From: Escherichia phage vB-Eco-KMB39
Sequence record: OR539219.1
Strand: one strand, 5' to 3'
Length of the DNA: 64,000 nucleotides
In this document: positions 3,138 through 4,548 of the stretch, one piece after another
How positions within the stretch are numbered: the stretch's first letter is position 1
Layout: each line of letters starts with the position of its first letter
Made by a program: the position numbers and the translations under genes
The notes under the pieces: generated by a model
What the model was told of the DNA's origin: nothing
Database searches by the model: none
The model's input: the letters and a program-made list of their open reading frames with translations, nothing else

Positions 3138-3215
3138 TGGTCGAGGCAGTAGGGATCGAACCTACGACCCAGGACTTAGAAGGTCCTTGCTCTTCCTTCT
3201 GAGCTATGCCTCGTA
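3138..3215 (-). tRNA. tRNA-Arg (anticodon TCT)
   Basis: Hand-folded cloverleaf: acceptor CGAGGCA/TGCCTCG, anticodon loop CTTCTAA, T-arm GTAGG-TTCGATC-CCTAC, encoded CCA. Confidence 0.75.
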
Positions 3216-3217
3216 TT

Positions 3218-3292
3218 TGGCGGACGTGATAGGATTCGAACCTATAACCAATCGCTTAACAGGCGATCGCTCTGCCATTGAGCTACACATCC
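3218..3292 (-). tRNA. tRNA-Asn (anticodon GTT)
   Basis: Acceptor GGATGTG/CACGTCC, anticodon stem ATCGC/GCGAT, loop CTGTTAA, T-arm TAGG-TTCGAAT-CCTA, encoded CCA. Confidence 0.7.
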
Positions 3293-3296
3293 AAAT

Positions 3297-3383
3297 TGGT
3301 GGGGAGTGGTGGAGTCGAACCACCCGAGTCGCAATGACAATGAATTTACAGTCCACACCGCTACCCCTACGGGATAACTCCCC
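3297..3383 (-). tRNA. tRNA-Tyr (anticodon GTA), type II with long variable arm
   Basis: 87 nt; acceptor GGGGAGT/ACTCCCC, anticodon loop CTGTAAA, variable arm GTC-ATTGC-GAC, T-arm GGTGG-TTCGACT-CCACC, CCA; anticodon stem needs two G-U pairs. Confidence 0.55.
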
Positions 3384-3392
3384 AAATTAATT

Positions 3393-3467
3393 TGGTGGCC
3401 CTGGGTGGAATTGAACCACCATCTGGCGATTATGAGTCGCTTGCTTGAACCTTCCAGCTACAGGGCC
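3393..3467 (-). tRNA. tRNA with CAT anticodon (Ile-lysidine or Met)
   Basis: Acceptor GGCCCTG/CAGGGCC, anticodon loop CTCATAA, T-arm GGTGG-TTCAATT-CCACC, encoded CCA. Confidence 0.7.
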
Positions 3468-3468
3468 T

Positions 3469-3545
3469 TGGTGCTGATTGACGGAATCGAACCGCCGACA
3501 TCCTCATTACAAGTGAGGTGCTCTACCTACTGAGCTAAATCAGCA
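3469..3545 (-). tRNA. tRNA-Thr (anticodon TGT)
   Basis: Acceptor TGCTGAT/ATCAGCA, anticodon stem CCTCA/TGAGG, loop CTTGTAA, T-arm GGCGG-TTCGATT-CCGTC, CCA. Confidence 0.8.
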
Positions 3546-3549
3546 AAAC

Positions 3550-3639
3550 TGGCGGAGGCGATAGGATTTGAACCTATGAGTCGCCGGAGCGACTGCCGGT
3601 TTTCAAGACCGGTGCATTCAACCACTCTGCCACGCCTCC
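3550..3639 (-). tRNA. tRNA-Ser (anticodon TGA), type II
   Basis: 90 nt; acceptor GGAGGCG/CGCCTCC, anticodon stem CCGGT/ACCGG, loop CTTGAAA, long variable arm, T-arm TAGG-TTCAAAT-CCTA, CCA. Confidence 0.8.
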
Positions 3640-3642
3640 AAA

Positions 3643-3658
3643 TATTTATATATTTATA
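3643..3658 (-). promoter_or_regulatory. two tandem TATAAATA late-promoter motifs just upstream of tRNA-Ser
   Basis: Plus-strand tatttata at 3643-3650 and 3651-3658 (TATAAATA on minus), between segB stop and tRNA-Ser 5' end; very close to the tRNA 5' end, so function uncertain. Confidence 0.3.
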
Positions 3659-4262
3659 TATTGTTAATTTGATTTAGAATTCTTTTTGCTTGAGTATGAC
3701 TTACGCCAATATGCTTAGCATATTTAGATAATTCGCCGCGTTTAGAAAAATCATATAATTTAGAAATTTCTATTCTTCTTTTTCTTTCATCCGCAGAAAC
3801 TTTTGCTTCGTTTGCTTTTGCTATTTTACGTTTAGCTTCTTGAGAATGAGTTTTACCAGCAAAGCCATTCTTCATTAATCCATTTGAAGACCATCCTTTT
3901 AATTTTCCGTTAGAATGTGCCTTTTTAACACCCAATGAAATTAATTCGCGTTGCTGATCTGTCATAGGATAATTATTTATATGATCCCATCCACCTTCAC
4001 CTCCAAGTTTTAAATTATACACATCTGGTCTATTTAAAAACTCTTCTGTGACAATATTTTTCTCGGCTTCAAGCATAGATTCTTTATCATCAAAATACTC
4101 TAATATTTCTTTAGAAAAATTTTCTATACCATATTTATCTTGGGCTCTTTTTAATAATTTACCAGAACCCATATATCCATCATCTAAATTTTCGGTAGAA
4201 TGCACACCAATATAAATTTTATTATTAATTTTATTTGTTATTTTATAAAGATAAAAATGCAT
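3654..4262 (-). CDS. segB: GIY-YIG homing endonuclease embedded in the tRNA cluster
   Basis: GIY-YIG motifs FYLYKITNKINNKIYIG and YMGSG; start moved from 4304 to ATG 4262 to avoid overlapping tRNA-Gly; segB-like position by memory of T4. Confidence 0.75.
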   Translation of the reverse strand: MHFYLYKITNKINNKIYIGVHSTENLDDGYMGSGKLLKRAQDKYGIENFSKEILEYFDDKESMLEAEKNIVTEEFLNRPDVYNLKLGGEGGWDHINNYPMTDQQRELISLGVKKAHSNGKLKGWSSNGLMKNGFAGKTHSQEAKRKIAKANEAKVSADERKRRIEISKLYDFSKRGELSKYAKHIGVSHTQAKRILNQINNI

Positions 4263-4308
4263 ATCAGTCCCTAATAAAGAACTGAGCGTCTCACGACGAG
4301 TCATAAAT

Positions 4309-4382
4309 TGGAGCGGATAATGAGAATCGAACTCACATCATCAGATTGGAAGTCTGAGGTAATACCATTATACGATATCCGC
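4309..4382 (-). tRNA. tRNA-Gly (anticodon TCC)
   Basis: Acceptor GCGGATA/TATCCGC, anticodon stem TCAGA/TCTGA, loop CTTCCAA, T-arm GTGAG-TTCGATT-CTCAT, CCA. Confidence 0.85.
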
Positions 4383-4387
4383 AAATT

Positions 4388-4474
4388 TGGTGCGAGAAGT
4401 GGGACTCGAACCCACAAGGAAATAATTCCGCAGCATTTTAAGTGCTGTGCCTTTACCAATTTGACCATTCTCGC
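4388..4474 (-). tRNA. tRNA-Leu (anticodon TAA), type II
   Basis: 87 nt; anticodon loop CTTAAAA, long variable arm, T-arm GTGGG-TTCGAGT-CCCAC, CCA; matches my recollection of T4 tRNA-Leu. Confidence 0.85.
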
Positions 4475-4475
4475 G

Positions 4476-4548
4476 CTGGGAATAAAGGACTCGAACCTTT
4501 GCATCCTGGAATCAAAATCCAGTGCCTTACCAACTTGGCTAATTCCCA
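4476..4548 (-). tRNA. tRNA-Gln (anticodon TTG), CCA not encoded, 1-nt spacer to tRNA-Leu
   Basis: Acceptor TGGGAAT/ATTCCCA plus discriminator G, anticodon stem CTGGA/TCCAG, loop TTTTGAT, T-arm AAAGG-TTCGAGT-CCTTT. Confidence 0.8.

Follow-up and report, generated by a model that had tools for sequence, protein, structure and literature searches.

The 64,000-nucleotide stretch of Escherichia phage vB-Eco-KMB39 DNA analyzed here (OR539219.1; called the window below) contains a cluster of nine tRNA genes. We read it as the tRNA/stable-RNA operon of a Tequatrovirus, a T-even phage, with an arrangement of the T2/RB type, unlike that of T4. Our explanation for the locus as a whole, which we regard as very probably correct, is that this is a T2/RB-type operon in which tRNA-Tyr and tRNA-Asn are ordinary members and in which the slot of tRNA-Pro has been taken by an endonuclease cassette. 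The cluster lies at the T-even genome position, contains the Gln-Leu-Gly block, and has homologs of rnaD and rnaC followed by a terminator on its 3′ side; by homology to T4, the operon would span 4644-2798 on the minus strand. The T4-type set of eight tRNAs (Gln, Leu, Gly, Pro, Ser, Thr, Ile, and Arg, with segB at Ile/Arg) is not the set found in the window. The 2-kb region matches 991 phage records, of which slur07 and bov9_1 are the closest (98.3-98.5%).

ARAGORN, run over the whole 64-kb window, calls exactly nine tRNAs, all on the minus strand within 3138-4548, and eight of the nine score 59-75 bits with the Rfam tRNA model (gathering score 29). In the order of transcription they are:

4475..4548, minus strand, tRNA-Gln(UUG) (ARAGORN; Rfam tRNA model 67.4 bits at 4476-4548)
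4388..4474, minus strand, tRNA-Leu(UAA), class II, CCA encoded (ARAGORN, Rfam)
4309..4382, minus strand, tRNA-Gly(UCC), CCA encoded (ARAGORN, Rfam)
3550..3639, minus strand, tRNA-Ser(UGA), class II, CCA encoded (ARAGORN, Rfam)
3469..3544, minus strand, tRNA-Thr(UGU) (ARAGORN; Rfam 75.4 bits)
3393..3467, minus strand, tRNA with a CAU anticodon (ARAGORN, Rfam)
3297..3383, minus strand, tRNA-Tyr(GUA), class II, A73, with a "phage-type" variable arm (ARAGORN)
3218..3292, minus strand, tRNA-Asn(GUU), G73 (ARAGORN; Rfam 74.1 bits)
3138..3213, minus strand, tRNA-Arg(UCU), T2/RB type (ARAGORN, Rfam)

These calls bear out the initial annotation as to the number of tRNAs, their span, and their order (Gln-Leu-Gly, a nuclease open reading frame (ORF), then Ser-Thr-CAT-Tyr-Asn-Arg). 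Tyr and Asn genes that lie outside the T4 set are indeed present, as judged from ARAGORN and from comparison with T4, and ARAGORN finds no tRNA with a TGG anticodon in the 64 kb. tRNA-Gly is identical to its counterparts in T4, T6, AR1, and NBEco003 (74/74), and tRNA-Thr to that of T4 (76/76). tRNA-Leu matches T4 at 86/87 positions, the sole difference falling in the variable-arm region, and tRNA-Ser at 86/90 (89/90 with AR1), the T4 copy being without an encoded CCA. tRNA-Asn is identical to T2 tRNA-Asn (75/75). tRNA-Arg is identical to that of bov9_1 (76/76) and is a different sequence from the T4 and T6 genes (50/76). Overall, the Tyr, CAU, Asn, and Arg genes range from about 84/87 to 76/76 against bov9_1, AR1, and NBEco003.

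How widespread this repertoire is was estimated by BLAST of a 50,697-record phage collection, with at least 80% coverage for the Gln-Leu-Gly block and for the Tyr-Asn pair. The Gln-Leu-Gly block was found in 446 records and the adjacent Tyr-Asn pair in 390; on these two counts most T-even clusters clearly have Tyr-Asn, and T4 is the exception. A T4-type tRNA-Pro at ≥95% identity was present in 248 records, the T4-type segB C-terminus together with tRNA-Arg in 73, and the window's endonuclease between Gly and Ser in 56. When IMG/VR was scanned for an exact 44-nt stretch of tRNA-Gly, only a T4-type locus and a fragment came up, too few for a survey of architectures. The repertoire is thus changed, as the initial annotation had it, in the sense that it differs from T4, but it is not unusual. 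T4 is the derived form: the part of the cluster with Tyr-Asn was replaced there by T4's own cassette of segB and tRNA-Arg. The tRNA regions of T2L, RB1, and RB3 have been sequenced and found to lack segB and to carry Met, Tyr, and Asn genes; T4 SegB cleavage sites were mapped in the T2L Gln, Leu, Gly, Pro, Ser, Met, Tyr, Asn, and Arg genes, and segB homing replaces the T2L stretch from tRNA-Ser to rnaI (Brok-Volchanskaya et al., 2008; PMC2330249). The layouts compared were as follows:

T4: Gln-Leu-Gly-Pro-Ser-Thr-Ile-segB-Arg-rnaD-rnaC
NBEco003: Gln-Leu-Gly-Pro-Ser-Thr-CAU-Tyr-Asn-His-Arg, endonuclease-free
T2: Gln-Leu-Gly-Pro-Ser-(133-residue ORF)-CAU-Tyr-Asn-Arg-(ORF)
T6: Gln-Leu-Gly-(Pro/Thr chimera)-Ile-Tyr-segB-Arg
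AR1: as in the window, plus His and one ORF
bov9_1: identical to the window, with nine tRNAs annotated

About a dozen further genomes match the 2 kb as one uninterrupted piece. Genomes with the identical layout (bov9_1, bov10K1, slur07, Phaginator, JLBYU24, AugustSocin, ECML-134, PhiZZ30, and others) share the nine tRNAs and the Gly/Ser endonuclease at 96.7-98.5% over 2 kb; the window differs from them by an 8-bp TATAAATA duplication before tRNA-Ser and by a few single-nucleotide polymorphisms, one of them in the tRNA-Leu variable-arm region. AR1 and RB18 have the same layout with a tRNA-His and an ORF in addition; a search for literature on the AR1 tRNA region returned nothing useful. T2/T2L (T2 genome NC_054931) shares the Gln-Leu-Gly head and the CAU-Tyr-Asn-Arg tail with the T2-type Arg, the identical Asn, a Ser gene with encoded CCA, and the rnaD and rnaC that follow. 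T2 keeps tRNA-Pro, has the 133-residue ORF in the place of tRNA-Thr, and carries an extra ORF after Arg, whereas the window has no Pro, retains Thr, and has no ORF after Arg. The T4 operon shares genome position, promoter region, Gln-Leu-Gly and Ser-Thr, the CCA-less Gln-Leu junction, rnaD, rnaC, and the terminator, but it has Pro, lacks Tyr and Asn, carries segB between Ile and Arg, and has dissimilar Ile (47/77) and Arg genes. The layout of the window is therefore a common T-even variant that is already known: the same layouts are in public databases and the main principles have been published. What is added here is that Tyr-Asn is the majority state, that Pro was displaced by a mobile cassette, and that the endonuclease is a mosaic of a SegB domain and another domain.

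The absence of tRNA-Pro is best explained by physical replacement by a homing-endonuclease cassette and not by codon adaptation. The Gly-Ser interval of T4 and NBEco003 reads ...CCGCTCCAATTT/AATTTAC-(tRNA-Pro)-CT/GGAGG.... Between these same flanks the window has a 669-nt spacer, ...CCGCTCCAATTT/ATGACTCG...AATATTT/GGAGG..., which holds an intact GIY-YIG ORF. Pro would thus be missing because the cassette occupies the exact Gly/Ser slot of "AATTTAC + tRNA-Pro + CT". NBEco003, which has Pro and no endonuclease, and bov9_1, which has the endonuclease and no Pro, are assigned to one species, Tequatrovirus nbeco; presence/absence within a species is the polymorphism expected of a mobile homing-endonuclease gene. 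The cassette would most likely have spread by homing in mixed infections, with the "no Pro" allele travelling along. In the complete genome of AR1 all ten tRNAs (t001-t010) lie in the cluster and none is Pro, and relocation of the gene is therefore unlikely. A Pro tRNA or remnant in 2830-3137 or in the cassette was also considered and rejected: the former stretch contains no Pro tRNA and aligns to T4 rnaD (102/121) and rnaC (137/139), and a permissive Rfam scan of 1-10000 gave no further tRNA-like match.

Codon usage was compared between 59 window ORFs (19,077 codons) and 68 E. coli K-12 genes (26,114 codons). CCA occurs 16.6 times per 1000 codons in the window and 8.5 times in E. coli, and CCU 15.4 versus 7.9 times. 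Since both codons are about twofold more frequent than in the host, reduced demand for proline codons does not explain the loss of Pro, and it was discarded as the cause. T6 lost Pro and Ser independently through an inter-tRNA deletion, and tRNA-Pro is therefore evidently dispensable. The gene annotated as "tRNA-Thr" in T6 (L004 2643-2717, minus strand) begins with the 5′-most 15 nt of Pro and continues as Thr from the TAGCTCAG motif that the two genes share; the acceptor stem of this chimera is mismatched, and ARAGORN makes no call there.

The gene in the Gly/Ser slot and the structure preceding it are:

3654..4262, minus strand, free-standing GIY-YIG homing-endonuclease gene, 202 amino acids from ATG 4262 (ORF and Pfam)
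4264..4285, minus strand, 9-bp RNA hairpin (minimum free energy -14.1 kcal/mol, z = -2.57)

The product is a domain mosaic, composed of a SegB-type catalytic domain and a different NUMOD3/helix-turn-helix DNA-binding domain, and not a segB ortholog. Codons 1-96 (about 3974-4262) are of SegB type and the C-terminal half (3654-3973) is another DNA-binding module. The GIY-YIG domain PF01541 is recognized by Pfam at 26.8 bits (cut-off 22.6), and its KIYIG motif aligns with Y17 and G19 of T4/T6 SegB, so that the catalytic residues are kept. The C-terminal half matches NUMOD3 at 20.1 bits, just under the 20.4 cut-off, and has a weak helix-turn-helix match. BLASTP against T4 SegB gives 83% identity over 117 residues and ends at residue 131 of the 216-residue ORF, with no similarity to T4 SegB found beyond the alignment; the first ~96 residues counted from Met 15 (ATG 4262) are almost identical to SegB 1-96. 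At the DNA level, the first ~96 codons are ~97% identical to T4 segB, with 282/300 matches in the first 300 columns followed by ~50%, which is background; the breakpoint lies near 3974 (column ~290). The C-terminal half is ≥95% identical at the protein level in 55 phage records. A full-length homolog is found in Klebsiella phage KP13MC5-5 (Jiaodavirus) between tRNA-Gly and tRNA-Pro, and its C-terminal half is about 80-92% identical in DNA per 60 columns.

The "segB" label of the initial annotation therefore holds for the catalytic domain but not for the DNA-binding domain, which is not homologous, or for the insertion site, which is Gly/Ser in the window and not Ile/Arg; T4 segB lies between tRNA-Ile and tRNA-Arg (PMC2988022). 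Compared with the T4/T6 enzymes, the product is likewise a free-standing GIY-YIG protein encoded in a tRNA cluster, with a near-identical catalytic domain and an upstream hairpin of the kind that sequesters the ribosome-binding site, and it differs in its C-terminal half and its insertion site. The "segD" annotation found in AR1 and NR1 was rejected, T4 SegD being only 38% identical and over the N-terminal nuclease domain alone. A T2 ORF in the tRNA-Thr slot, T2_137 (133 residues; L009 2721-3122, minus strand), is without a GIY-YIG domain and shares 33% identity with the DNA-binding C-terminal half of the window endonuclease; it has the look of a degenerate endonuclease, a remnant that took the place of another tRNA.

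Translation of the endonuclease likely starts at ATG 4262, giving 202 residues as annotated in bov9_1. The alternative ATG 4304 (216-residue ORF) was judged unlikely because a conserved hairpin and Shine-Dalgarno sequence precede ATG 4262; ATG 4304 itself has no Shine-Dalgarno sequence, lies 4 nt after tRNA-Gly, and is GTG in the Klebsiella homolog. The 3′ arm of the hairpin at 4264-4285 holds a Shine-Dalgarno-like AGGGA just before ATG 4262; the Klebsiella phage homolog keeps the hairpin, with G-U and A-U substitutions. The probable role of the hairpin is to repress translation of the endonuclease. Hairpins that sequester the ribosome-binding site are described for T4 segB, I-TevI, mobE, and other homing endonucleases (PMC2330249; PMC2988022).

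Potential cleavage sites were also inspected. The SegB core motif GGTTCRANTCC is present in seven of the nine tRNAs and in rnaC; the window contains nine matches versus 0.14 expected, and the sole copy outside the tRNA/rnaC region is at 30105-30115 on the minus strand. tRNA-Asn carries the GGTTCGAATCC core motif at 3232-3242. The preferred T4 SegB cleavage site, described for T2L, lies in tRNA-Asn (PMC2330249), and the window gene is 100% identical to the T2 gene with that site; the phage should therefore be a recipient for T4 segB homing. For the window's own enzyme, cleavage close to the 3′ terminus of tRNA-Gly can reasonably be guessed at, because the cassette starts 4 nt after the Gly CCA in two genera and SegB cuts just 3′ of CCAR (PMC2330249).

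ARAGORN folds both tRNA-Tyr and tRNA-Asn into cloverleaves with CCA. That of tRNA-Tyr is of class II, with A73, a CUGUAAA loop, and a long variable arm, and that of tRNA-Asn has G73 and a CUGUUAA loop; each has a 7-bp acceptor stem, a 7-nt anticodon loop, U33, and the expected anticodon. The synthetase identity elements are A73, a class II variable arm, and GUA for Tyr, and G73 and GUU for Asn. All of these can be read in the window genes. In the AR1 record, ARAGORN and tRNAscan-SE 1.23 both call the AR1 copy (84/87 versus the window) Tyr. The window tRNA-Tyr matches that of T6 at 86/87 positions, one D-loop base being different, and T6 tRNA-Tyr has been detected by northern blot and tRF-seq and is functional (PMC13096335).

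The tRNA with the CAU anticodon is most likely a tRNA-Ile2-type, lysidine-dependent decoder of AUA rather than tRNA-Met. The determinants recognized by TilS are a CAU anticodon within an ileX-like anticodon stem-loop and the pairs C4-G69/C5-G68. The gene shares the ileX anticodon stem-loop (15 contiguous identical bases) and C4-G69/C5-G68, and it matches E. coli ileX at 58/76 positions versus 52/83 for metT. The label "tRNA-Met" used by ARAGORN and by most GenBank records was set aside, as it follows from the CAU anticodon alone. The gene matches T4 tRNA-Ile at only 47/77 positions and the CAU gene of the rV5-like phage FFH2 at 74/75. tRNA-Tyr, in turn, matches the gene of the same FFH2 (a Vequintavirus) at 83/87 positions, with an identical variable arm and T stem-loop; one base of this region, on the 3′ side of the T-stem, differs from the T5-like Tequintavirus SE11, and all of these phage forms are unlike E. 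coli tyrU. From the CAU and Tyr comparisons, individual tRNA genes appear to be common to unrelated coliphage families.

The codons read by the cluster tRNAs are all enriched relative to E. coli: AGA 6.6-fold, AUA 3.6-fold, UCA 3.4-fold, GGA 3.0-fold, ACA 2.7-fold, AAU 2.5-fold, UUA 2.2-fold, UAU 2.1-fold, and CAA 1.8-fold. Asn (1.52-fold) and Tyr (1.49-fold) are the second and third most over-used amino acids, and His is under-used (0.63-fold), which fits the lack of a tRNA-His. The cluster tRNAs would thus supplement the decoding of A/U-rich codons that the phage uses 2-6 times as often as its host. tRNA-Tyr, perhaps with Asn and Thr, may in addition buffer the phage against host nucleases that cleave tRNA, as shown for T6 tRNA-Tyr. 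The variable arm of tRNA-Tyr is where the Septu system EcB88 (PtuAB) cuts; resistance of T6 to Septu depends on the phage's own tRNA-Tyr, escape mutants amplify a tRNA-Tyr-segB unit, and T4, which is without tRNA-Tyr, cannot escape (Chihara et al., 2026; PMC13096335). The T5 tRNA-Tyr counters retron-Eco7 (Azam et al., 2024; PMC11555353), a resistance ascribed to its variable loop (PMC13096335). The window resembles T6 in its tRNA-Tyr, and the variable arm of this gene is identical to that of a T5-like phage. In T6, however, segB lies directly beside tRNA-Tyr and the pair amplifies as a 718-bp unit, whereas the window endonuclease, with its different DNA-binding domain, is not adjacent to tRNA-Tyr but four genes away. 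tRNA-Asn(GUU) is a target of PARIS AriB; the window gene has U36-A-A-G39 where E. coli tRNA-Asn has the U-A-A-U motif beside the AriB cleavage site. The phage has no tRNA-Lys, and protection from PARIS would therefore be partial at best.

With these results, the competing explanations can be weighed. The initial annotation had suggested that the repertoire reflects adaptation to host codon use or to tRNA-targeting defenses, and the form of this idea in which the lineage gained Tyr and Asn and shed Pro for either purpose has some points in its favor: the over-representation of Asn and Tyr and the 2.1-2.5-fold enrichment of AAU and UAU, the action of phage tRNA-Tyr against both Septu and retron-Eco7, and the UAAG of the phage tRNA-Asn, an AriB target, where the host has UAAU. 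The enrichments of AAU, UAU, Asn, and Tyr (1.5-2.5-fold) do fit codon adaptation, but the loss of Pro does not, CCA and CCU being used about twice as often as in the host, so that its shedding was not codon-driven. Tyr-Asn is the majority state across T-even phages (390 versus 446 records) and hence no gain of this lineage, and Pro was replaced base-for-base by a mobile endonuclease cassette whose presence varies inside one species. We therefore consider lineage-specific adaptation improbable as the origin of the repertoire. The defense idea finds published support in T6 tRNA-Tyr, and what is said here about function in this phage is drawn from sequence identity to such characterized genes.

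Less probable still is that the Gly/Ser ORF is T4 segB relocated, the same enzyme with the same specificity. Its near-identical first ~96 codons and its retained Y17 and G19 would be expected of a moved gene (mutagenesis of T6 SegB has been reported; PMC13096335), but similarity to T4 SegB is undetectable past about residue 100, the C-terminal half is instead 80-90% DNA-identical to the Klebsiella phage homolog and 33% protein-identical to T2_137, and the insertion site is Gly/Ser and not Ile/Arg; the mosaic is by far the better description. We give almost no credence to the proposal that Tyr and/or Asn are tRNA-like pseudogenes without a role in translation. The Tyr D-arm is irregular and its covariance-model score weak, the gene is labeled "tRNA-OTHER" in some GenBank records, and T6 tRNA-Tyr is seemingly less stable than the host tRNA (PMC13096335). 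Nevertheless, both genes form complete cloverleaves with the right discriminator bases and an encoded CCA and are 97-100% conserved over hundreds of genomes, Asn scores 74 bits with the Rfam tRNA model, and T6 tRNA-Tyr, one base removed from the window gene, is detected on northern blots and rescues infection (PMC13096335).

Several points weigh against the T2/RB-type operon account that we prefer. The record counts on which it draws are approximate, since the database is redundant, with GenBank and RefSeq copies of a record both counted, and since coverage thresholds were applied. About 140 Gln-Leu-Gly records carry neither a T4-type Pro nor the cassette, and among them the T6 architecture alone was inspected. 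In Rfam, the best clan match of Tyr is tRNA-Sec at 31.8 bits, below the threshold of 47, and its RF00005 score is masked by clan competition, which leaves the tRNA-Sec match as the only one reported. The operon promoter described below is probably of the MotA type, homology to T4 being the sole basis for that assignment. The activity, homing, and target of the endonuclease are predictions from its sequence. Finally, Septu also cleaves T6 tRNA-Tyr, and protection required amplification of the gene (PMC13096335); a single tRNA-Tyr copy may therefore protect little.

The remaining elements assigned to the operon, and a repeated motif within it, are:

4618..4644, minus strand, probable MotA-type middle promoter (TTTGCTTTA box at 4644-4636 and TATTAT -10 element at 4623-4618)
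3643..3658, minus strand, TATAAATA twice in tandem (T4 late-promoter consensus), overlapping the endonuclease stop codon and adjoining the 5′ side of tRNA-Ser
3017..3136, minus strand, rnaD homolog (species 2 stable RNA), 102/121 versus T4 rnaD
2872..3010, minus strand, rnaC homolog (species 1 stable RNA), 137/139 versus T4 rnaC
2798..2821, minus strand, intrinsic terminator hairpin (10 pairs, 7 G-C) and U-run, end of the operon

The 112 nt on the 5′ side of tRNA-Gln match T4 at 102 positions, and both promoter elements lie inside a long unbroken identical run. A middle promoter is located just 5′ of the T4 tRNA cluster, from which a single ~1.75-kb transcript ends after species I RNA (PMC2330249). 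By analogy with T4, a single transcript would start from the middle promoter 5′ of tRNA-Gln and proceed through Gln-Leu-Gly, the embedded homing-endonuclease gene, Ser-Thr-Ile2(CAU)-Tyr-Asn-Arg, rnaD, and rnaC to the terminator. The terminator hairpin is kept in T4 and AR1, and the rnaC homolog includes a tRNA-like T-arm by motif match (2884-2894). The motif TATAAATA is found at 25 sites in the window versus 10 expected. The second copy at 3643-3658 is the 8-bp duplication, which is absent from AR1 and bov9_1, and the tandem might drive late transcription of the half of the operon from Ser to rnaC. Another TATAAATA at 3974-3981 on the minus strand falls exactly on the breakpoint between the segB-identical and unrelated halves of the endonuclease gene, with an in-frame ATG ~12 nt on its 3′ side; this may be a coincidence or an internal late promoter. 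Two ORFs flank the operon, at 2272-2745 (minus strand, 157 residues) and 4635-5150 (minus strand, 171 residues). Both are present in AR1, and the upstream one also in T2; T4 is without either at these positions. The 171-residue ORF has no Pfam match.

Processing would follow the T4 scheme, with excision of the tRNAs by host RNase P and 3′ processing enzymes. tRNA-Gln ends in CCCAG with no encoded CCA, and a lone C (4475) stands between its discriminator G (4476) and the G1 with which tRNA-Leu begins, a junction that is the same as in T4 and that agrees with the dimeric precursor proposed in the initial annotation. Gln and Leu would thus arise from one precursor, with the CCA of Gln completed by the host CCA-adding enzyme. 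The other eight tRNAs all encode CCA, so that one gene in the window lacks it as against four in T4 (Gln, Pro, Ser, and Ile). Dimeric precursors with a spacing of <5 nt are classical in T-even phages, and T4 Ser is matured from a CCA-less Pro-Ser dimer (reviewed in PMC11143913). In the window, Ser is without a Pro partner, and its CCA is encoded in the gene. By analogy with T4 segB/tRNA-Arg, maturation of its 5′ end would cut the endonuclease mRNA 14 nt past the stop codon.

tRNA-Gln is identical to the AR1 and NBEco003 genes (74/74) and matches T4/T6 at 65/74 aligned positions. The mismatches are confined to the 17-nt anticodon arm, the other 57 nt being identical; all five stem pairs of the arm are changed with compensation, and the loop reads UUUUGAU versus CUUUGAC. 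This pattern suggests either gene conversion over a short patch or selection acting on that arm.

A broader interpretation, which we offer only tentatively and hold to be somewhat doubtful, is that the Gly/Ser enzyme is a distinct homing endonuclease aimed at the Gly/Pro junction whose homing deletes Pro, and that Seg-type enzymes are the main remodelers of tRNA genes in T-even clusters. Such a pattern would fit the loss of Tyr-Asn in T4, the endonuclease remnant in place of Thr in T2, and the loss of Pro here. Where Septu or PARIS exerts selection, the enzyme might also, by analogy with T6 SegB, amplify the Tyr, Asn, and Thr genes nearby. If this interpretation is true, an uncharacterized Gly/Ser endonuclease actively remodels the phage tRNA repertoire.

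Taken together, these results indicate that the textbook eight-tRNA set of T4 is unrepresentative of T-even phages, and that differences in tRNA repertoire among close relatives can be by-products of selfish endonuclease traffic, with codon adaptation not required. Defense nucleases (PtuAB of Septu and retron-Eco7; AriB of PARIS) are now known to target tRNA-Tyr, tRNA-Asn, and tRNA-Thr or to be decoyed by them, and the host range of a therapeutic or model phage could therefore depend on which of these genes it has.

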